From IMG/VR virus record IMGVR_UViG_2671180724_000008: a stretch of DNA of 64,000 nt. One strand, given 5' to 3'. The position numbers were made by a program, and so were the translations under genes. Shown one piece after another: positions 14,515 to 46,237 of this stretch. Source of the DNA: a virus. Taxonomy: Duplodnaviria > Heunggongvirae > Uroviricota > Caudoviricetes. Under the pieces are notes generated by a model, which saw nothing but the letters and a program-made list of their open reading frames with translations, ran no database searches and was not told the origin of the DNA. Each line of letters starts with the position of its first letter. Position 1 is the first letter of the stretch.

Positions 14515-15282
14515 TTATGCCGCGCTAACACTATGTTCAGTCCTAACCACCCCAACCTTCACAAAAGGGCTACCGTAGCTTGGTGGCTTCTTGATTAATT
14601 TGCCTACATACAGTTTTCTAATATGCTCATCGGCTATTCTGCCAACAAATTCATAACGTTTTGTGTCGGGGCCAAGAGCTATATCCCTTGTAAAGTACTG
14701 CTGAGAACCGGCTTTGACCCAGCATTCAATCCGATAAACTTCCATTATCAGCCCACCATATGTAGCGTAGGCATATTTGAGATTCTCGTCTCTTGGAACC
14801 TTTGCCCATACGCCACGCGTAGCTTCATATAATGCCAGAGCGGACATTCCTGACTTGTAGGTGCTGTTTAGCAGGAAGGCAAGACCGGCGTGCTCAGGAG
14901 CAATTTCAGTTTCCTCTTGCAGCACTAAGTGATGGTAGGCGTCCAGTGATATTCTGCCCATCATGGAACCACTTCCTCGTACCTTATTCGTAAGCTCTCC
15001 GACCCCCATAAGGTCGATGCATGTCGCCTCAACAAGTTTGGCTGTGGTTTCATCCATACCATGACGAAGTATATCTATGCCTAATTTTTTATTAGCCAAA
15101 AGTTCTTTGATCCGCATGGATTTGGGAGAGTCATCGGGATACTTGATGTGATCGAGACAACGAGTCGATTTGCCTTTTCCTATGTAAAACGGTCTTTTCA
15201 TCTTGTCTTCTGTATCATAGAGACAGTAAACATAGTATTTAGCCTTATCCAATGATCTCGCGTATACCGATAAATCGTCCAT
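14515..15282 (-). CDS. GIY-YIG family nuclease with uncharacterised C-terminal domain
   Basis: 255-aa minus-strand ORF. N-terminal YVYCLYD...PFYIGKGK..R..H matches the GIY-YIG catalytic pattern. It is the only minus-strand gene in a plus-strand block. Confidence 0.55.
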   Translation of the reverse strand: MDDLSVYARSLDKAKYYVYCLYDTEDKMKRPFYIGKGKSTRCLDHIKYPDDSPKSMRIKELLANKKLGIDILRHGMDETTAKLVEATCIDLMGVGELTNKVRGSGSMMGRISLDAYHHLVLQEETEIAPEHAGLAFLLNSTYKSGMSALALYEATRGVWAKVPRDENLKYAYATYGGLIMEVYRIECWVKAGSQQYFTRDIALGPDTKRYEFVGRIADEHIRKLYVGKLIKKPPSYGSPFVKVGVVRTEHSVSAA

Positions 15283-22191: not shown

Positions 22192-22478
22192 GCAATTTAA
22201 CTTCTTGGGAATGGTGGTTGGCCACCTATTTCTTAGCGGCCGGAGTCGCATTCGCCTTTTACGTAGGTCAGTTAGTCGTAAAACTGTTGCTGATTAAATT
22301 TGCTAGTCATAAACGTATCGATGATGGTCTGTGGCGTCTTGGCACCCTGGTGGAAACTCGCTACGGGCAACTTAAGGAGAACGAAACCATTACTATCCAA
22401 GCGAAACGATTCACTGCCACCATCACAAGAACACCTAGTCGTAGAGTGGCATTGATCAAAAAAGTCACAACCGAATAA
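22188..22478 (+). CDS. hypothetical membrane protein
   Basis: 96-aa ORF with an N-terminal TM helix; ATGA overlap with the preceding ORF. Confidence 0.35.
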   Translation: MSNLTSWEWWLATYFLAAGVAFAFYVGQLVVKLLLIKFASHKRIDDGLWRLGTLVETRYGQLKENETITIQAKRFTATITRTPSRRVALIKKVTTE

Positions 22479-23256
22479 AAACATATTGATAAGTATTTAC
22501 TTACTTATCTTTTGTGTATAAGATGACTTTGTTTTCGTTGAGACGCGACTGTTTGAACTTAAATACAAGTGCAAACGAAGAAGTCTATCTGGCAGTAGCC
22601 TAATAAGCCAAACACCAGCGAGGTCAGTTTCCAGCCTCGTTACCGAAATGGGACACACTGAGCGAGTGTGATTGCAGAACGCAGGAGGGAACATTCATGT
22701 TCCCTCCGATGAAGTAACAGAATGGGCGGTTGGTATATTTTCAACTCCATATGACTCCCGGATTCTTAGCCACTGACCGCCCATCCTGTTACGTCATTTT
22801 GTTCAATTATGTCGTTTATACTGGGTTAAAAAGCGGCGACGTAGCCCGGCTGGTATGGTTAGCCAGCACACAACGTTGAGGCCATTACATTTTTATCAAT
22901 TCTAAGGTTCTATTCACAGAGATACCGGCGAGCGTTGATATGTAACATGTTGGGCAAACATTCAATCGGAGTAGTGGCCTCAACGTTGTGAAGACGGGAT
23001 TGTTGTGTAGGTTTAACCACTGTTGCCATTGGTGCCTGTTTTCACAACAAATGATTCCATACATCACATTGTATAAATTACAAAGTAGGTGCTGTCCTCA
23101 GAAACATCATCTACTTAAAGATTTTGCCTTCTACTATTGAGCGAAGTCGAAAGCGTCTGGCACTAACGAAAAGTGCAAGTAGCGGTGCGTTTCCTGGCAG
23201 AAACTAAACCGTCGCGATTGGCACTGTTGAGTAATAAATACTGGCAGTGCTGAATT

Positions 23257-23331
23257 GATGGTGTAGCTCAGCGGTAGAGCAGTTGGCTGTTAACCAACTG
23301 GTCGGTGGTTCGAATCCACCCACCATCGCCA
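23257..23331 (+). tRNA. tRNA-Asn (anticodon GTT)
   Basis: Canonical cloverleaf read by eye: acceptor gatggtg / caccatc, D-arm gctcagcggtagagc, anticodon loop ctGTTaa, T-arm ggtggttcgaatccacc, encoded CCA. Confidence 0.8.
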
Positions 23332-23336
23332 ATTTA

Positions 23337-23423
23337 GGGGAGTTAGTCCGTAGAGGTAGCGGTGTAGACTGTAAATCTACTGTCATTGCGACTCGGGTGG
23401 TTCGACTCCATCACTCCCCACCA
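23337..23423 (+). tRNA. tRNA-Tyr (anticodon GTA), type II with long variable arm
   Basis: Acceptor ggggagt / actcccc, anticodon stem-loop gtaga-ctGTAaa-tctac, long variable arm, T-loop ttcgact, encoded CCA. Confidence 0.7.
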
Positions 23424-23427
23424 AATT

Positions 23428-23503
23428 GCCGGTTTAGCTCAGTTGGTAGAGCGCCTGCCTTGTAAGCAGGATGTCAGCGGTTCGTGTCCGTTAACCGGCA
23501 CCA
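23428..23503 (+). tRNA. tRNA-Thr (anticodon TGT)
   Basis: Acceptor gccggtt / aaccggc, D-arm gctcagttggtagagc, anticodon loop ctTGTaa, T-loop ttcgtgt, encoded CCA. Confidence 0.75.
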
Positions 23504-24171
23504 ACATAATATTGAGAACATTGGCGTAACGGGGTCATATCCCAATCTATGAATAAATGTTACGTTGCCGCGTGACAACCAGTGTTCTCAACATTGTGGT
23601 GAATGCACAGGCTGATGTGCCGCAACTACAGTAGTGCGCGCTTTGCGGGGCTTGCTACAACCCTGTGTCGGAGATCAGCGCCGACCATCACAATTTGGCT
23701 CTCTTGCAACAGCATAACGCTGAAATATGTCCAACCTGGTGCGGCCTGTTCACCCGCCGTTAGCTCCACGAAACGGAGCGCACAACAGATAAGAGAACTT
23801 CCCATATGGGGCTTGGCTTAAATGCATCGAGTTCTCTTATCGCTGTGTCACAGACAAATTTCCGACAGCCCTGTTTATCATCGGACGCAACCTAAAAGGT
23901 CGAGGCAAAGCCAGGTAATAGCGGAGGGAGTGACACAGCACACAACAGGTAAGAGCATTTGTAGAGTTCGACTCTCTACCGTGGGCTTTTTCCCGCGATG
24001 CGAGCCATAAATGCTCTTTCCGTTGTGGTGGATTCGCAGACTGATGCGATAGCTTTCTTGGATGTTAGGGAAATGCGGCCGCAAATCTTCCCTTTCGCGA
24101 GCGGTGATCGTCCGTAGTCCTAATTGGCTGCACCGTATGCCGGAGATTCAGTACCGGCCACCACAACGGCC

Positions 24172-24258
24172 GGAGAGTAGGGAGCATGGTGCTCAAGCGG
24201 TCTTGAAAACCGTCCCATTGTGCAAACGATGATGGTTCGATTCCATTACTCTCCGCCA
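24172..24258 (+). tRNA. tRNA-Ser-like (anticodon TGA), type II, non-canonical D-arm
   Basis: Acceptor ggagagt / actctcc, anticodon stem-loop gcggt-ctTGAaa-accgt, long variable arm, T-loop ttcgatt, encoded CCA. The D-arm is irregular, so function is uncertain. Confidence 0.5.
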
Positions 24259-24260
24259 GA

Positions 24261-24338
24261 CACAGCGTTGAGCGGTTTGGCCTTTTAATCAACTCGATTA
24301 AGACTCCGCTAACATAAACCAGACCGCTCAACGCTGTG
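24261..24338. repeat. long imperfect inverted repeat immediately after the tRNA cluster
   Basis: 20-bp arms (19/20 match): cacagcgttgagcggtttgg and ccagaccgctcaacgctgtg, separated by a 42-nt loop. Confidence 0.6.
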
Positions 24339-24370
24339 ATAGACAATTACGGCAGACGTTCTTAACCATA

Positions 24371-24400
24371 GCTTGCTAACATCCTAGCAACACTTTTTTT
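24371..24400 (+). terminator. rho-independent terminator after tRNA region
   Basis: ttgcta-acatcc-tagcaa hairpin followed by cacttttttt. Confidence 0.5.
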
Positions 24401-24413
24401 CAGCGCAAAATTC

Positions 24414-24436
24414 AAAGGGGCTTCGGCCCCTTTTTT
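24414..24436. terminator. bidirectional rho-independent terminator
   Basis: aaaggggc-ttcg-gcccctttttt, with an A-run upstream and T-run downstream. Lies just past the 3' end of the minus-strand gene 24454..25788. Confidence 0.75.
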
Positions 24437-24453
24437 GAAAGCAATGGGCAAGT

Positions 24454-25788
24454 TCATGCCAAATTATCCAGATTTCTTTTCTTTTTTTCAATTATATTTC
24501 TCGCGCCAGAAAAAATTTTACTCAAAATAATTGATTTGCTTGCTCTATTATTAAGATGTAACAACGCGCTATAAAATACATAGTTATCTATTTTACTATT
24601 TAAAGTATTCCCAAGCTTCCCGTTATATGTGCTATTAATAGTATTAAAATATACATGTTCAGGACCTATATTACAAATACCCCTATCAACTCGCTTTAAA
24701 TAATGTTTAACTAAAGAAATAGCATCTTCCTTATCATTAATAACATAAAGTCCTGAGCGTTTACCTAGCTTGCTGTCCGAGAATAATTTATAACCAACAA
24801 GTTCATTTAACGTATTATCCACTTTTGTCAACTCTTTGTTGGCAATCTCCAAATAATACTCAATCTCTTTCTCCATATTACTTATTAAAGAGTTAAATTC
24901 TGCTCGTAACAAATCACCACCAGGTGATTTATAACTCCATAAAATTGAATTGGTAATACGTACTACGTCAGATACTTCTGGTTTCTCTGAATAGTTTTTG
25001 TATCTAGTGCAAATAATGCTGTGCTTTATATATTCTCTAACTAATGATCGATAATCCCTTTCGAAAAGGTTTTTGACATCTAGTCTTCCATTGCTTGTTG
25101 TTATTAAGGTGGTGTTTAAAACTGGGTCGCCTTCAAAAAAATTATATTTATTTAGTAATCGTTTTAGCTTGTGTGAATTATGTGATGTTTCGCCATAATA
25201 ATTTATCCCAAAAATAGCAATTATTAGCATAACATCAGGAGTGATGAAATGTCGTAATTGCTCGGCATAAACTTTTTTATCTTCGATTTTCGAAGATGGA
25301 GAGTAAAAACCTTTGTCTATATATTCTAATATTGAAACAATATTACTAACATAACGTATAAAAACTTGATTCATTACAACGGAATCATAAACCTGATGCA
25401 AATAATCTACTCTCAAGTTGTTTTTTATTTTTTCCCCTGTACTAGATGATAACTCTTCTTTTACCTGCCCAAGTAGCTTTTCGTGGTGCTCCAGCAATGT
25501 TTTAAACCATTGTTCAAATGATGATTTTCTTGCCTCAGTTAATGAATCTGATGTTATCTGGACAGCTTTCATAGCTGCTTTCGCACTTTTCTTTGCTTCA
25601 TAAGCGTTCCATGCTGAAGCACAAAAAGCTGCCGCCGTGATGCAACTGGTAAAAATAGAAATCCTATCTGCAACATTCAAGCTCCAGAACCAATCAGACG
25701 ATGAAATCAAAACCACAGATATTACGGGAACAATGAAAATCAAAACAGGCATGTATGTACTCGCTCTAATAGTTATTAGTCGAGGCAA
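24454..25788 (-). CDS. low-GC membrane protein of unknown function (candidate accessory / defence or exclusion gene)
   Basis: 444-aa minus-strand ORF in a markedly AT-rich segment. Two predicted N-terminal TM helices, then a largely helical soluble region with no nucleotide-binding or nuclease motif recognisable by eye. Own terminator at 24414..24436. Confidence 0.5.
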   Translation of the reverse strand: MPRLITIRASTYMPVLIFIVPVISVVLISSSDWFWSLNVADRISIFTSCITAAAFCASAWNAYEAKKSAKAAMKAVQITSDSLTEARKSSFEQWFKTLLEHHEKLLGQVKEELSSSTGEKIKNNLRVDYLHQVYDSVVMNQVFIRYVSNIVSILEYIDKGFYSPSSKIEDKKVYAEQLRHFITPDVMLIIAIFGINYYGETSHNSHKLKRLLNKYNFFEGDPVLNTTLITTSNGRLDVKNLFERDYRSLVREYIKHSIICTRYKNYSEKPEVSDVVRITNSILWSYKSPGGDLLRAEFNSLISNMEKEIEYYLEIANKELTKVDNTLNELVGYKLFSDSKLGKRSGLYVINDKEDAISLVKHYLKRVDRGICNIGPEHVYFNTINSTYNGKLGNTLNSKIDNYVFYSALLHLNNRASKSIILSKIFSGARNIIEKKKRNLDNLA

Positions 25789-25848
25789 ATATTATATAAA
25801 TCTCGTTATGATTTACAGACATGTATACGTATTGCTAATTATCACCAA

Positions 25849-25880
25849 CAAATGATAGGTGTGTACATATCTATCATTTG
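25849..25880. promoter_or_regulatory. palindromic operator-like site in a divergent intergenic region
   Basis: Perfect 10-bp inverted repeat caaatgatag ... ctatcatttg with a 12-nt spacer, between the minus-strand membrane-protein gene and the glutaredoxin gene. Confidence 0.45.
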
Positions 25881-25930
25881 TTGTAAAATTAATGTATACG
25901 CTATGAATACACTAATAATATGAGGTAATC

Positions 25931-26176
25931 ATGACTATCGTTATCTACGGACGAGATAACTGTTCATACTGCAAACGTGCGGTCGAGCTGGCGAAGCAAC
26001 TAAAGGGACATGGCTACGGTGATTATGAGTACATCGACATCACTACTACCGGTATCGATAAGGAAAAACTTAGCGAAATTGTTGGTAAACCGGTAGAGAC
26101 TATACCCCAGGTACTGATCGATGGCCAGCCGATTGGCGGATACACAGAACTGGCTGCATACGTCAGCACCCTCTGA
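25931..26176 (+). CDS. glutaredoxin (NrdH/Grx-like thiol-disulfide redoxin)
   Basis: 81-aa protein with active-site CSYC near the N-terminus and the TIPQVLIDGQPIGG motif. Confidence 0.7.
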   Translation: MTIVIYGRDNCSYCKRAVELAKQLKGHGYGDYEYIDITTTGIDKEKLSEIVGKPVETIPQVLIDGQPIGGYTELAAYVSTL

Positions 26177-26180
26177 TTTT

Positions 26181-26206
26181 AACGGCTCACAGGAGCCGTT
26201 TTTATT
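26181..26206 (+). terminator. rho-independent terminator
   Basis: aacggctc-acag-gagccgtt hairpin followed by tttatt. Confidence 0.7.
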
Positions 26207-26386
26207 CCCACCAAACTCACTCCCGTTTCCCTTAAAATTCAAAAAACAACGTCAAAATGATTCCATACCTACTATGTATGGAATCATTCGTGAAAATGAG
26301 TTACTTTTACTCTTGATCCTATAAGAATCTATGCCTAATATACTGTTTACTTATACAGTGAATCGGCGTAACTCGGTGATTGTCAT

Positions 26387-27490
26387 ATGAAAAATAGCTT
26401 TGACAGAGCACGCGCTGCGGAGAACACCTCAAAAGAGGCGATTGAGTATCTCGAAAGAGCATCTCAAATGCAGGCCGTTATGATCTCGCAGGTTAGCAAT
26501 GACATGAGATTCTCGGACGCATTCATGTTATTCACTCGCTTATCTCTGCTTATAACCAGACGTCGGCCAGAGATCGCTGTTCATTGTATTTTGATACATG
26601 TTTTGCCGCACATTGCTGATGTAAAAGTAAGTGACATTAATAGGTTCATGGTGAACCAACTGGTAAACCCACTAATACTGGATGGCAAAATTGTTATGGG
26701 CCGCCGCGTTTTCTCTCTGATGAAGCAGTTCCTTAGCTGGTGCGCCTTCCAGGGGATGATAGACGTGTCACCGTTAAACGATATGTCACTAAACAAAGTT
26801 GCCGGTGGCGCAAAGCCCACACCTCGCGAGCGGAAGCTGACCGACGCAGAGGTATGGGTGTTCTGGAATATATGGGACTACTTCAATGTGTGCGCTGGTA
26901 CAAAATGGGCGGCCAGGCTGTGTCTTGTATCAGCAAGACGACCTGACGAAGTACTGCGGGCTAAAAAAAGTGAGTTCAATCTTAAGCGTGGGGTTTGGAA
27001 TCAAGGCAAGAGAAACAAGTCAGCACGTGAGCATTCGCTGCCTTTAAGCACATTAATGCGCACATGCATTGAAGAGTTGTTCGAATACGGTAAAGACAGC
27101 CAGTGGCTCGTGCCTTCGAATAAAAAAATCGGGAAAGACCTTCCTATGTCTAAAGTGGCAATAGCCCAGGCATTACGTCGTATTCTGGAACGACCAGAAC
27201 TGATGGAGCTTGAGCCATTTACACCCCGAGATTTGCGCCGTACTGCGCGTAGTTACTTCCCAGCATTAGGCATAAGCCAGGAGGTATCACGCAAAATCAT
27301 GAACCACAGTCTTGAGGGGATAGATCGGGTCTACGACCGGCACGATTATATGGACGAGATGCGAGACGCCTTAGAAAGTTTCTCGACGTACATCGCATCA
27401 ATCGTAGAGCAACCGGATTTAGACGAAATTGACCACAAATTCAAGGGAGATCGTCTATCAACAGAGCTTATTCGTGTAAATTTTTCATAG
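26387..27490 (+). CDS. tyrosine-type site-specific recombinase (integrase / resolvase family)
   Basis: 367-aa ORF. C-terminal catalytic region carries R..DLRRTARS ... HS ... YDRHDY, consistent with the R-H-R-Y tyrosine recombinase signature. Confidence 0.7.
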   Translation: MKNSFDRARAAENTSKEAIEYLERASQMQAVMISQVSNDMRFSDAFMLFTRLSLLITRRRPEIAVHCILIHVLPHIADVKVSDINRFMVNQLVNPLILDGKIVMGRRVFSLMKQFLSWCAFQGMIDVSPLNDMSLNKVAGGAKPTPRERKLTDAEVWVFWNIWDYFNVCAGTKWAARLCLVSARRPDEVLRAKKSEFNLKRGVWNQGKRNKSAREHSLPLSTLMRTCIEELFEYGKDSQWLVPSNKKIGKDLPMSKVAIAQALRRILERPELMELEPFTPRDLRRTARSYFPALGISQEVSRKIMNHSLEGIDRVYDRHDYMDEMRDALESFSTYIASIVEQPDLDEIDHKFKGDRLSTELIRVNFS

Positions 27491-27871
27491 AGACTTTATG
27501 GCCTCAACAACCTTTTGTGATGCGCCTTTCTCTTTACCGAATCGCTCGTTATATGCAGCAAGAACCTGTTTTTCGTCCTCGTTAAGAGGAGCGGTGCCTT
27601 CTTTGTATAAAAATGCTGCGAGTTCAGGTTGGCGTTCTTCCAGCACCATCATCATAAGACGACTTGGCTCAATACCCAGCGCCAGCGCCAGCGGACGAAC
27701 CTTATCGATAGGCAAAGGAATTTTGCCACTTTTAATTAAAGAAAGGTTGTTGGCATTTTTATAACCAATAAGTCTGGCTATTTGGGCCTGACTCATAGGT
27801 GAGGATTCAATCAGCCCTGCGATAAAAGCAGCATAGCGACTTTCTATAAATTCAATCTTGTTGTCAGACAT
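27485..27871 (-). CDS. XRE-family helix-turn-helix transcriptional regulator (repressor-like)
   Basis: 128-aa minus-strand ORF with HTH segment SQAQIARLIGYKNANNLSLIKSG. Convergent with the recombinase gene and divergent from the operon beginning at 28123. Confidence 0.6.
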   Translation of the reverse strand: MSDNKIEFIESRYAAFIAGLIESSPMSQAQIARLIGYKNANNLSLIKSGKIPLPIDKVRPLALALGIEPSRLMMMVLEERQPELAAFLYKEGTAPLNEDEKQVLAAYNERFGKEKGASQKVVEAIKSL

Positions 27872-36129: not shown

Positions 36130-36246
36130 TTTTTGATAGATAATAAGTAAGTACTGATCTATCATTTAACAGCTCGAAAGAGCCACGAATGAACGAAAGC
36201 CCAACGCGCATAGCGCCATCGGCCAAATCACAACAAGGAGAAACAC

Positions 36247-37269
36247 ATGTCTAAGACATTACTTGATTTGCTTAACAAAACTCGTGAAGACATTGCCGCC
36301 AAACGTGGCAAAAACACTGATTTGACCCGCTTAAAAGACGGCATCAACTATATCCGCATCTTCCCTAATAAAGACGACCCGAATGGTAAGTTCTTCCAGA
36401 CTTTTGGTATGCACTACATTAAGTATCAGAACGAGGAAGGTAAAGAAGCAACCAATGCTTATATTTGTGAGCAACATACTCACGGTCGCGCTTGTCAGCT
36501 ATGCGAAATGGTGATGGAAGGTCGCGCTCGTCACAAGGGTAACAAAGCAATGGAAGAGCGCATCGGTCAAATGCGTGCAACCCCTCGCTACCTGGTAAAC
36601 GGCATTCTTTCAACTCGTGAGGATTTCTCCGATGCAGAGAAATGTCAGTTAATCGAACTGCCTTCCACTGTGTTCGATGATATCTGCAAAGCAATCACCG
36701 AAGACATCGCTGACGATATCGGCAATCCATTAAGCAAAGAGGAAGGTTACGCATTTCAAATTAAGCGCACAGGCTCTGGTCGCGATACAGAATATGACGT
36801 TTCACCAAAACGTAAAGTCTTCAAAGGTGATATCGAAGATAAATTCTGGAACAACCAACATGACCTGATTGCTTATGTGAATCAGGCCGATGAAACTCGC
36901 CTTCTTGCGACAGTTCGCACTATGGGTCGTCTGATTGGCATCGCTGCACCAACTGCCACTGCATCGGCACCAGCAATTTCCTCAACAGCGAAAACATCGG
37001 CCTCTGCACTGCCTGGATTTGGCTCGATCACTGGTCATACGGAAGGAGCGACGGCTGTAGCAACCGCCCACACTCCAGCTTCTGAACCAACCAGTCTGGT
37101 TGATGAAGAAGTCCTGCGAGCAATGGAATCTGAATTTAAATCAGAAACAAGTTCTGCTGCCACATCAGCCAAAGAGTCTGAAGCAGACGCAACGACATCT
37201 GTAGCAGCCGCATCTGCGGCGGAAGATGAAGGTATTGATGACCTGCTGAAAGAACTGGAGTCTCTGTAA
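36247..37269 (+). CDS. single-stranded DNA-binding protein (T4 gp32-like) with acidic C-terminal tail
   Basis: 340-aa ORF. N-terminal region aligns by eye with gp32 (INYIRIFPNKDDPNGKFF versus gp32 AVIRFLPSKNDEQAPF) and carries a Cys/His cluster CEQHTHGRACQLC. Acidic C-terminus EDEGIDDLLKELESL. Confidence 0.6.
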   Translation: MSKTLLDLLNKTREDIAAKRGKNTDLTRLKDGINYIRIFPNKDDPNGKFFQTFGMHYIKYQNEEGKEATNAYICEQHTHGRACQLCEMVMEGRARHKGNKAMEERIGQMRATPRYLVNGILSTREDFSDAEKCQLIELPSTVFDDICKAITEDIADDIGNPLSKEEGYAFQIKRTGSGRDTEYDVSPKRKVFKGDIEDKFWNNQHDLIAYVNQADETRLLATVRTMGRLIGIAAPTATASAPAISSTAKTSASALPGFGSITGHTEGATAVATAHTPASEPTSLVDEEVLRAMESEFKSETSSAATSAKESEADATTSVAAASAAEDEGIDDLLKELESL

Positions 37270-44487: not shown

Positions 44488-45022
44488 TCACCGCTGACAG
44501 CATACACAATCAACTACCGCTGATAGCATATCGAGAGTCTATCTTACCGCTCACAGCATACTTTACTCGATTTTTTACCGCTGACAGCATACTTAAGACA
44601 TTGCATGAATAATGTGTACCGGTATGGGTATAACCAGAACAAAATTACCGCTGGCAGCATACGAAGGTCTGACATATACCATTAATTACCGCTGATAGCA
44701 TATCCAAACAAAAATTCCTCAATAAAACACCGCTGACAGCATACGTTCTATCAGGGAGCAGCAGGCAATAAATGCCTTTCACTACAAGCAATCAGCGCAA
44801 TAGCAATAGAATGTTAGTGAGCGCAAACCTATATGGAATGCACTCTTCGAGGTTAGTAACCACTGGGGAGGTATGACAGAGCATTGAGTGGTGATAGATG
44901 ATTTACCGCTCACAGCATACGTTCATCTCACTATACCGCTGGTAGCATATCTTTAACCGTTCACAGCATACTTTTCAGAAAAATAGCCGCTGATAGCATA
45001 CATTTCACCGCTGACAGCATAT
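44488..45022. repeat. iteron array downstream of repA (12 copies, incA-like)
   Basis: Twelve direct repeats with consensus (T)ACCGCTGACAGCATAC at irregular 20-45 bp spacing, in two clusters (7 + 5) separated by about 140 bp. Confidence 0.85.
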
Positions 45023-46116
45023 CAAAGCAGTTTGAGACTATTGGAAAGGATCTCAATCATCTTGATATTTTCAGGCGTCAAATTCTGCGAAAGTTCGGTT
45101 ATCTTGTTGATAATGTTCTGTTTAGCATCAATTTCCCCGGCTTTCTCATCTGGTTTTTTGGGTTCGATGTCTTCAGGTTTTGGCGGTGCGACTTTAAGTT
45201 TTGGATTACGGCTGTGAATCTGGATATAGATCGACCGCCCTCGCTTAATCTCGCTGTATTCGAGATAGCCCAAATCTTGGAGAGCTTTTAAGCCGTTACG
45301 TATAGTCTGATTCTGCGAGCTGACATTCCTGCTACTCAAATTGAGTCGCGCACGCAATCGAGCAAGCGATACCGGCGCAGGCTTGGTTGGAAGACTTTCG
45401 ATGAAGGTGTACAGAGCCTGTGCTGTTTCTTTGCGTGGTAGCTTATTGATAACCTTTAACTGCAAAAGAACCTTATGGTCAAAGCGATATAGTTCGGCCA
45501 GCTTCGGTTCTGCATAGAACACCACCGTATCTTTCTGCTCGTTGTAGTCCACGCTATTGATGAGGTGCACCATCAGAAGCGAGATCTTGTTAGAGCCGTC
45601 GACGTTCTTTTCTTCATACGTTCTCTGGAAAGACAGAGTTGTACGCATGATCTTCAAAAGACTGTTTGTAAGCCGGTCGCGGAGTGTTTTGCGGATCTGT
45701 GACGATGGATAGCCACAAAACTTCGCAAATTTCGTGATGCTTAACTCGACACGACCGTTAGGTTCGCCGTATTCTGCCAGCGAACGCACAACGCCCACCC
45801 ACGTTTTGAAATCATGATCCATGTCGAGACGAGGACCGGTTATCTTGATGTCGGAATAGCCTTCAGAACGGGCTACTTCGAGCTGAACAAGCTCCTTTGA
45901 AGCATCGATTTCATTTGGCTTGTTACGCTTGCTGTATTTTGTCCCCTTGAGCGTGGGCACGAACAACCCCAGCCGCATCAACGCAATTGGTTGGACTGTA
46001 TTGTTGCTATTAGGGACAAGTTCCCCTGTGTACAATTCAAGGGAACCTTCTTCAAAGTTGTCGAGATTATCTTCTACTTCTTTGTTATTTTTACCTTTTT
46101 TATTTTTTGTGGACAT
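45022..46116 (-). CDS. repA: RepA-like iteron-binding plasmid replication initiator
   Basis: Minus-strand ORF flanked on both sides by iterons. Start set at MSTKNKKGKNNK (ATG at 46116-46114) so that the coding region does not overlap the upstream iterons; the track start is 46236. Confidence 0.7.
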   Translation of the reverse strand: MSTKNKKGKNNKEVEDNLDNFEEGSLELYTGELVPNSNNTVQPIALMRLGLFVPTLKGTKYSKRNKPNEIDASKELVQLEVARSEGYSDIKITGPRLDMDHDFKTWVGVVRSLAEYGEPNGRVELSITKFAKFCGYPSSQIRKTLRDRLTNSLLKIMRTTLSFQRTYEEKNVDGSNKISLLMVHLINSVDYNEQKDTVVFYAEPKLAELYRFDHKVLLQLKVINKLPRKETAQALYTFIESLPTKPAPVSLARLRARLNLSSRNVSSQNQTIRNGLKALQDLGYLEYSEIKRGRSIYIQIHSRNPKLKVAPPKPEDIEPKKPDEKAGEIDAKQNIINKITELSQNLTPENIKMIEILSNSLKLL

Positions 46117-46134
46117 GTGGACACCTTTGTCATT

Positions 46135-46237
46135 CAACCGCTGACAGCATACTTGATTTGCCGCTGGCAGCATACAAAAAACAGTTGGCAGCATACGGCG
46201 AACCGTTGACAGACTATCAATTACCGCTGACAGCATA
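46135..46237. repeat. iteron array upstream of repA (5 copies, origin/incC-like)
   Basis: Five copies of the same CCGCTGACAGCATAC-type repeat, two of them degenerate, in the repA promoter region. Confidence 0.8.

Follow-up and report, generated by a model that had tools for sequence, protein, structure and literature searches.

The virus record IMGVR_UViG_2671180724_000008 (Caudoviricetes) contains an AT-rich stretch occupied by one stand-alone gene, which lies opposite in strand to the surrounding backbone genes, is bounded at its end by a shared bidirectional hairpin and possesses an intergenic control region of its own; this locus raises the question of what such a gene contributes to the element that carries it. 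We analysed the full 64,000-nt stretch, hereafter called the window, and all coordinates given below are window positions. The element is one that we take to be an SSU5-like phage-plasmid of Escherichia coli. Our comparisons make it probable, though well short of certain, that the gene is a single-gene defence cassette on this phage-plasmid and that it encodes a divergent member of the AbiC/AbiP (putAbiC) family.

The gene and the family of its product

An earlier note on this DNA had described an antisense gene of 444 amino acids (aa). One intact open reading frame (ORF) is indeed present on the minus strand, and the ORF listing gives it as 24454..25788, or 444 aa counted from a TTG at 25788; however, the gene most likely comprises 24454..25752 and encodes 432 aa from the ATG at 25752 (stop codon at 24454-24456), because the starts of the homologues, the RefSeq annotation and a GAG motif agree on this. 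The Met matching the ATG is the start in all eight aligned homologues and is invariant, a 99.6%-identical copy is annotated in RefSeq as 1299 nt/432 aa, and the Shine-Dalgarno-like GAG lies 7 nt 5' of the ATG. The homologues do not reach into the in-frame extension (25753..25788, minus strand), and no Shine-Dalgarno motif was found 5' of the TTG; the extension is probably non-coding, either 5' untranslated or promoter-proximal sequence. Since approximately 7.6% of random codons would be stops in DNA of this composition, a frame of 432 open codons is no chance event (~1e-15 by hand calculation). The cassette (24438-25930) holds no other plausible ORF, and the five alleles L003-L006 and L018 are each annotated as a single gene.

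The low G+C content of the island was confirmed. The gene has a G+C content of 0.322 and the cassette (24437-25930) of 0.319, compared with 0.457 for the window, and the gene is the minimum among all 1.3-kb windows of the 64 kb (z = -4.55) and the sole stretch below 0.38. The sliding G+C content falls from 0.42-0.52 in the flanks to 0.30-0.32 over 24400-25400, and the G+C content at third codon positions is 0.27 in this gene against 0.39-0.52 in five neighbours (the genes for the ligase, grxA, the integrase, the helix-turn-helix (HTH) protein and the CobT-like protein).

Although the earlier note found no motif assignable to a known family, an assignment to AbiC/P (putAbiC) can be made at the level of the family. 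The window protein itself gives a borderline match to the Pfam family putAbiC (PF16872), at E = 2.7e-4 and 21.8 bits over aa 132-207 (model positions 7-73/80), and it matches phrog_18168, to which no function is assigned, at E = 1.8e-177. The family is small: from 1.84 billion cluster representatives, a profile built on eight homologues retrieved no more than 82 relatives at E <= 0.001, and the named members of the family belong to Enterobacterales only. Within the family, PF16872 is matched by 5/8 close members and by 50 of the 63 near-full-length broad members (best 1.4e-11), and the PADLOC models for AbiC and AbiP are matched by 9/63 (best 1.3e-6) and 6/63, respectively, all of them more distant members. 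The region corresponding to aa 132-207 matches the PADLOC AbiC/AbiP models in the relatives P0031 and P0037. The profile search joins the family to putAbiC-positive proteins at E values of 1e-20 to 1e-100, and hhalign aligned the phage-plasmid clade to a set of 13 relatives, almost all of them putAbiC-positive or PADLOC AbiC-positive, with a probability of 100% and E = 9.2e-41 over 351 columns. NCBI calls the members that pass the Pfam threshold 'putative phage abortive infection protein' and the phage-plasmid alleles 'hypothetical protein'. Because the family-level matches and the profile-profile comparison point the same way, while the single sequence stays below the thresholds, we file the window protein as a divergent AbiC/P member; judged from sequence, it appears to represent a currently unannotated branch of a known kind of system and not a new type.

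Several other matches were set aside. A scan of the window protein against NCBIfam returned noise only, and weak Pfam matches to FHIPEP and MxiM were rejected as hydrophobic/helical noise. The weak match of the relative P0040 to the PADLOC model PD-T4-4_B (E = 3.6e-4) was treated as spurious, because the domains listed for PD-T4-4 are of the AAA+ ATPase, P-loop NTPase and PD(D/E)XK nuclease kinds.

The predicted architecture agrees with the earlier description of two N-terminal transmembrane (TM) helices followed by a helical soluble domain, TM1 being strong and TM2 moderate. TM1 (aa 1-19; 25696..25752, minus strand) has a Kyte-Doolittle mean of 2.36 and is a helix in the AF2 model, which is nearly all-helical with a pLDDT of 80; TM2 (aa ~30-52; 25597..25665, minus strand) runs directly into a stalk that ends at aa 102 (AF2 helix 30-102). 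The 11-aa loop between the two helices contains two acidic and zero basic residues, and five Lys/Arg residues occur in the 23 aa after TM2, so that by the positive-inside rule the loop would be periplasmic and the remaining ~380 residues cytoplasmic. The cytoplasmic part is rich in Lys/Arg with a net charge of +10, which would be compatible with nucleic-acid binding. It includes the putAbiC core (aa 132-207; 25132..25359, minus strand), the most conserved block of the family, and a C-terminal domain (aa 211-432; 24457..25122, minus strand) that is helical with a small beta element and has no known fold. Column entropy separates a conserved region, aa 25-210 (TM2, stalk and putAbiC core), from the highly variable aa 211-432, and many distant relatives align over the first ~220 residues only. 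The invariant or near-invariant positions are mostly aromatic or aliphatic, together with the His at position 90 (H90), and the family alignment contains no invariant polar set that would point to an enzyme. Solved structures included none resembling the N- or C-terminal part, and a 63-member profile found nothing at E <= 1 among PDB sequences. Foldseek found nothing at E <= 0.001 among the BFVD viral structures. When the C-terminal domain alone was used as a profile to look for it in proteins of different build, nothing but fragments of this family came back. Two other kinds of membrane protein were considered and rejected: a holin or lysis protein, given the length of 432 aa, the ~380 residues predicted to be soluble and the neighbouring tRNA, grxA and integrase genes, and a SLATT-type effector with two TM helices, given that SLATT_1 was matched in just 1/8 relatives (E = 0.23).

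The characterised proteins closest to this family are lactococcal. AbiC has two TM helices, leaves phage DNA replication unaffected and lowers production of the major capsid protein (PMC13064643). AbiP, with a single TM helix, binds both RNA and single-stranded DNA irrespective of sequence; its anchor and binding domain are both required, it disturbs the switch from early to middle/late transcripts, and it becomes toxic once the phage major tail protein is present (PMC13064643). Models of the two superpose over 93 aa at 0.91 A, and they have been grouped as 'AbiC/P' (PMC13064643). The window protein shares two N-terminal TM helices with AbiC (Prf; pTN20; PF16872; PADLOC PDLC02343), but its host is Gram-negative, its carrier is a phage-plasmid, and it adds a hypervariable C-terminal domain of ~220 residues that has no counterpart in the 306-position AbiC model. 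Like AbiP, it is a single membrane-anchored protein with the common core; AbiP, however, is far shorter (223-position model) and its anchor is a single TM helix, and the sequence likeness covers the core only. By analogy, the activation of AbiP by a phage structural protein offers a plausible model for what the variable domain might do here. The enterobacterial proteins named 'putative phage abortive infection protein' (Pectobacterium, Yersinia, Cedecea and Salmonella; P0090, P0093, P0040 and P0092) are clear homologues, have the same N-terminal module and fall into the same class of 420-470 aa, but they are only 21-30% identical, are chromosomal and not in the slot described below, and in many cases differ in their C-terminal domains. 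Our literature searches found no experimental characterisation of these PF16872-positive relatives.

A replaceable slot in the phage-plasmid backbone

The region shows 96-99% nucleotide identity to non-mobilizable E. coli plasmids of ~110 kb, pEC881_2 among them, and, the island excepted, 96-98% identity to the Escherichia phages CMS-2020a and Cyrano, and the window encodes a Rep3-type replication initiator. The backbone defined by grxA and the integrase gene is present in 199-252 of 5,426 complete E. coli genomes and is always plasmid-borne. As the earlier note had pointed out, the gene lies beside tRNAs and a recombinase, that is, between the tRNA cluster and grxA/integrase: the final backbone gene ahead of it is tRNA-Ser(tga) (24172-24258, plus strand; ARAGORN), and the first one past it is the glutaredoxin gene grxA (25931..26176, plus strand; Pfam Glutaredoxin E = 7e-11 and RefSeq annotation).

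Comparison with related plasmids by BLAST delimits a replaceable cassette at 24438..25930, extending from the terminator to the start of grxA. Homology to L002, a variant that lacks the gene and carries gp49 instead, stops at 24440 and restarts at 25931; homology to L006, which carries a 30%-identical allele, stops at 24437 and restarts at 25919. The left junction coincides with the end of the terminator T-run and the right junction with the Shine-Dalgarno sequence and ATG of grxA. Three kinds of content were found in this slot, all of them set in a nearly identical backbone. In 77 complete E. coli genomes it holds a plus-strand gene of the gp49 family that is translationally coupled to grxA. 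In L016 (NZ_CP024271.1, 2176-2964) it holds two plus-strand genes, of which one encodes a 262-aa product matching the PADLOC defence candidate PDC-M68A (E = 5.9e-25) and nuclease domains of the CBASS/Shedu type, and the other a 193-aa partner product that gave no match. The third kind is the antisense gene of the AbiC-like family.

At least four deeply diverged classes of AbiC-like alleles exist in E. coli and E. albertii, and phage-plasmids of Klebsiella and Enterobacter carry further classes at this position. The window-type allele is rare, with 6 of the 5,426 complete E. coli genomes set against 199-252 backbones; the L006-type allele was found in 40 of these genomes and the L018-type in 5, and the L003-type shows 50% identity. 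Altogether, of the ~200-250 complete E. coli genomes that have the backbone, at least 51 carry an AbiC-like allele. A homologue was detected by tblastn in 136 PLSDB plasmids, compared with 644 plasmids that match the grxA-integrase backbone (about one fifth). The window-type, L003-type and L006-type alleles, three types at 30-50% identity, are all flanked by the identical integrase (WP_048959201.1), which argues that the alleles were exchanged by recombination and did not diverge in place.

These observations bear on the earlier proposal of a recently acquired accessory cargo gene. The gene does sit in a replaceable slot with sharp homology breakpoints, but its recency has to be qualified, since homologous alleles occupy the slot across genera. 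All five slot alleles whose base composition was examined, those of Klebsiella and Enterobacter plasmids included, have a G+C content of 0.31-0.38, and among the chromosomal relatives it is 0.295 in Pectobacterium and 0.43-0.44 in Salmonella and Yersinia, values that are nevertheless below those of their flanks; low G+C content is thus a trait of the family as much as a mark of recent arrival. Because AbiC-like alleles share both the slot and the low G+C content across Escherichia, Klebsiella and Enterobacter, the hotspot is old, and the window shows an allele replacement at this site rather than the first arrival of a foreign gene. Defence genes are reported to be enriched among the genes recently exchanged by phage-plasmids (PMC10879196). 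Like the defence hotspots known from temperate elements, this one has a fixed site with conserved flanks at which alternative defence genes are swapped; it differs from them in its SSU5-like carrier, in its position between the tRNA cluster and grxA, and in the dominance of one diversified family. Neither this slot nor this AbiC/P branch was found described in our literature searches.

Substitutions were analysed between the window allele and a 97%-identical allele (L013), a comparison that involves small numbers. The ratio of non-synonymous to synonymous divergence (dN/dS) is 0.37 for the AbiC-like gene, compared with 0.05 for grxA and 0.03 for the integrase gene on the same two plasmids, and the C-terminal ~220 residues evolve approximately 10x faster at non-synonymous sites than the flanking genes. 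A cluster at aa 299-326 (24775..24858, minus strand) accounts for 12 of the 20 amino-acid differences from L013. Between the two halves, synonymous divergence (dS) rises from 0.0075 on the N-terminal side to 0.106 on the C-terminal side, an unevenness that suggests an intragenic recombination breakpoint. The C-terminal domain would accordingly be described as under relaxed or diversifying evolution, with positive selection unproven.

Proposed function and competing explanations

The chromosomal relatives occur in defence or mobile islands. In Serratia marcescens, a relative is bordered on one side by an AAA ATPase pair and Thoeris (SIR2-STALD ThsA and TIR ThsB) and on the other by a reverse transcriptase; in Yersinia enterocolitica, a relative adjoins a module of TerB, a BrxC-like ATPase and a helicase together with a 1448-aa protein with an NCAB2 domain (PF22726). 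At mutS, Salmonella relatives lie in an island that is bounded by an integrase and carries a PIN protein and insertion sequence (IS) elements, accompanied by HsdM in one of the three loci (L009), and the Pectobacterium relative is located immediately 3' of an N6-methyltransferase gene in a relaxase-bearing element. A distant branch of ~390 aa is found in maintenance/accessory regions of IncK2/Z (L020, 2640-3812) and IncF (L021, 5139-5891) plasmids. Both of these members lie just upstream of a convergent gene for a 'potassium channel family protein'; the one in L020 follows a RelE/ParE toxin gene, and the one in L021 is cut by IS1.

The guess of an Abi-like effector in the earlier note thus gains support from the borderline putAbiC match, the family-level link to AbiC/AbiP and the defence-island context, and we propose the following course of events as a working model. 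The gene would be expressed from its own promoter during maintenance of the plasmid, with which its stand-alone arrangement is consistent, and the protein would stay idle in the inner membrane until infection. The variable C-terminal domain would then recognise a product of the infecting phage, much as AbiP is triggered by the phage major tail protein, whereupon the conserved, membrane-tethered N-terminal module would stop phage development late in infection. This arrest might proceed as in AbiP, with nucleic acids bound or sequestered at the membrane and the switch from early to late phage expression disturbed, or as in AbiC, with production of capsid protein lowered; alternatively, the membrane itself might be damaged or perturbed. 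In each case the competing phage would produce little progeny, which would protect the phage-plasmid resident in the cell together with its host lineage.

A number of points weigh against this interpretation. Scored alone, the window protein falls 0.2 bits under the Pfam cut-off of 22.0; neither it nor five other phage-plasmid alleles have a PADLOC match at E <= 0.01; and the likeness to lactococcal AbiC/AbiP, as assessed through the Pfam and PADLOC models, is limited to a core of ~60-90 residues. The hydropathy of TM2 in the window allele is only moderate (~1.3 by hand calculation), and this helix seems by eye to be more hydrophobic in relatives. The mechanistic steps are borrowed from distant relatives, and the mechanisms of AbiC and AbiP are themselves poorly understood. 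Concerning the variable domain, the uneven dS favours intragenic recombination over purely positive selection, and a dN/dS below 1 also fits relaxed constraint. Finally, tblastn found no homologue in 50,697 phage records, and carriage in packaged virions is undocumented.

The main alternative is superinfection exclusion at the level of entry, in which the membrane-anchored product would block incoming phage DNA, that of relatives included, at the inner membrane without killing. A membrane anchor on a temperate element, encoded near a lysogeny-control region (the integrase and an HTH regulator, the latter a 'putative repressor' in phage Cyrano), would fit such a function, and the diversity of alleles would suit specificity for different incoming phages. 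We nevertheless regard exclusion as unlikely, because relatives have also been found outside prophages, in defence islands of the chromosome and on conjugative or mobilizable plasmids, because AbiC and AbiP, the only characterised homologues, act after DNA entry, and because the large domain is predicted to be cytoplasmic and not periplasmic. The same homology and defence-island context also speak for phage defence over a membrane toxin or competition factor directed against other plasmids or plasmid-free segregants, that is, addiction or inter-plasmid exclusion. This explanation can draw on the distant branch in the IncK2/Z and IncF maintenance regions, beside a RelE/ParE toxin and partition genes, and on the low expression that is common among AT-rich toxic genes; yet the cassette has no antitoxin-like partner, and the backbone dispenses with the gene wherever gp49 fills the slot, so that we consider a toxin very improbable.

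A non-defence accessory membrane protein serving the life cycle of the element or the physiology of the host, whose likeness to AbiC would reflect merely a shared helical scaffold, appears quite improbable as well. It is compatible with a direct Pfam match below threshold and with the lack of a catalytic motif and of a solved-structure match, but the profile homology (E = 9e-41) goes far past scaffold likeness, the backbone can do without the gene or carry another in its place, and a PDC-M68A-like nuclease candidate occupies the same slot of another plasmid. Returning to defence by an AbiC/P-like protein, a more ambitious version of this proposal can be considered, which we put forward only tentatively and hold to be rather doubtful as it stands: the slot might act as an immune-receptor locus of SSU5-like phage-plasmids throughout Enterobacteriaceae, made up of a single polymorphic gene that joins a conserved, membrane-tethered AbiC/P effector to a rapidly diversifying C-terminal sensor of unassigned fold, and in which each allele would sense a different phage structural protein and alleles or half-alleles would be shuffled by homologous recombination through the terminator and grxA flanks.

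Control region, neighbouring features and significance

The earlier note assigned to the gene a bidirectional terminator of its own. The hairpin is real: a G+C-rich stem-loop (AAAGGGGC-TTCG-GCCCCTTT) is present on both strands at 24414-24433, at the left cassette junction, with approximately -15 kcal/mol on the plus strand and -14 on the minus strand; its T-run is clean on the plus strand and interrupted (TTTGAATTTT) on the minus strand, and it was absent from the output of a simple terminator scan. Ownership by the gene did not hold up, since the hairpin is nearly identical downstream of every allele and is also kept in the gp49 variant, which lacks the antisense gene, and it is therefore an element of the backbone. 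It serves as the terminator of the tRNA operon on the plus strand and probably also as that of the antisense gene on the minus strand.

The perfect 10-bp palindrome reported upstream of the gene is present (arms at 25849-25858 and 25871-25880, with a 12-bp spacer) and forms the core of a longer inverted repeat at 25846-25883 in the divergent intergenic region, whose 19-nt arms are 89% complementary (z = -6.2 on the plus strand). The strict core is unique in the window (0.02 occurrences expected by chance), and an altered repeat (GATAGGTGTG..CATAnCTATC) is found in the 30%-identity cassette type (L006 and L017). Promoter-like sites at 25862-25889 (plus strand) and 25867-25838 (minus strand) overlap the repeat in a consensus scan, and the repeat is a candidate operator. 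The window contains no convincing extra copies that would tie it to a phage repressor; a single site, 36138-36167, which is intergenic and precedes the gene at 36247, resembles 25850-25879 with 3 mismatches, probably by chance. A candidate sigma-70 promoter of the antisense gene (CTGTAA-16 nt-TATAAT; 25818-25791, minus strand) was read from the sequence and was missed by the consensus scan because its -35 box is weak; its -10 box is retained in L003, and L006 has a TAATAT box at a similar place. The consensus scan gave 9 promoter-like sites against 7.7 expected in the AT-rich stretch, which is not above chance, and all promoter assignments are for this reason candidates only.

The gene was also described as the only sizeable antisense gene of the region, and this is correct locally, but the window has further real minus-strand genes, namely those for a 128-aa HTH regulator (27485-27871), for the Rep3 replication initiator (45022-46236) and for a 255-aa GIY-YIG protein (14515-15282) with a LEM-3-like GIY-YIG nuclease domain (E = 5.6e-7). 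The last of these lies among plus-strand genes and is possibly a homing-endonuclease-like insertion.

Several features were noted on either side of the slot. The tRNA-Asn, tRNA-Tyr and tRNA-Thr genes are located at 23257-23503 (plus strand; ARAGORN), and a permissive Rfam search of 22400-26400 found nothing beyond the four tRNAs. The tRNA-Ser(tga) gene (24171-24255 in Rfam) scores as tRNA-Sec with 46.8 bits against a gathering score of 47, most likely because of its long variable arm rather than because it is a true selenocysteine tRNA. The stretch 23510-24011 is variable, being absent in L002, partial in L001 and complete in L006, and phage Cyrano has only the tRNAs for Asn, Thr and Ser, packed in ~250 bp. 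In P1, RCS47, D6 and related phage-plasmids, the tRNA regions match parts of ~23253-24282 at ~90-93% identity, which suggests that tRNA cassettes are exchanged between phage-plasmid families. Directly 3' of tRNA-Ser, at 24261-24338, there is an inverted repeat with 20-nt arms (95% complementary and 38 nt apart) that is also present in the gp49 variant; a processing signal and a recombination site are both possibilities. The gap between grxA and the integrase gene contains a 33-bp near-perfect palindrome (AATGATTCCATACCTA-C-TATGTATGGAATCATT) at 26256-26288, which is conserved in L001, L002, L003 and L006 (E. coli/E. albertii) and is a candidate site for a recombinase or a regulator. In Cyrano, the grxA-int interval holds an extra antisense gene of 184 aa and may thus be a second variable slot.

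The present analysis documents a sharply bounded exchange hotspot, located between the tRNA cluster and grxA, in SSU5-like elements. Surveys that rely on Pfam gathering thresholds or on PADLOC would miss these alleles, because they lie just under the Pfam cut-off and have no PADLOC match; they consequently go uncounted in standard surveys, and counts of defence genes on phage-plasmids are affected. The result should be useful for censuses of defence systems, although it will be of little surprise to the specialist. Decades after the description of AbiC and AbiP in lactococci, how they work is still poorly explained, and the E. coli allelic series provides a tractable entry: with a conserved half and a variable half in a natural series of alleles, domain swaps and the mapping of escape mutants would be straightforward. 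If the slot is indeed a polymorphic immune-receptor locus, then this allelic series would allow us to work out how AbiC/P proteins sense phages and bring about arrest.

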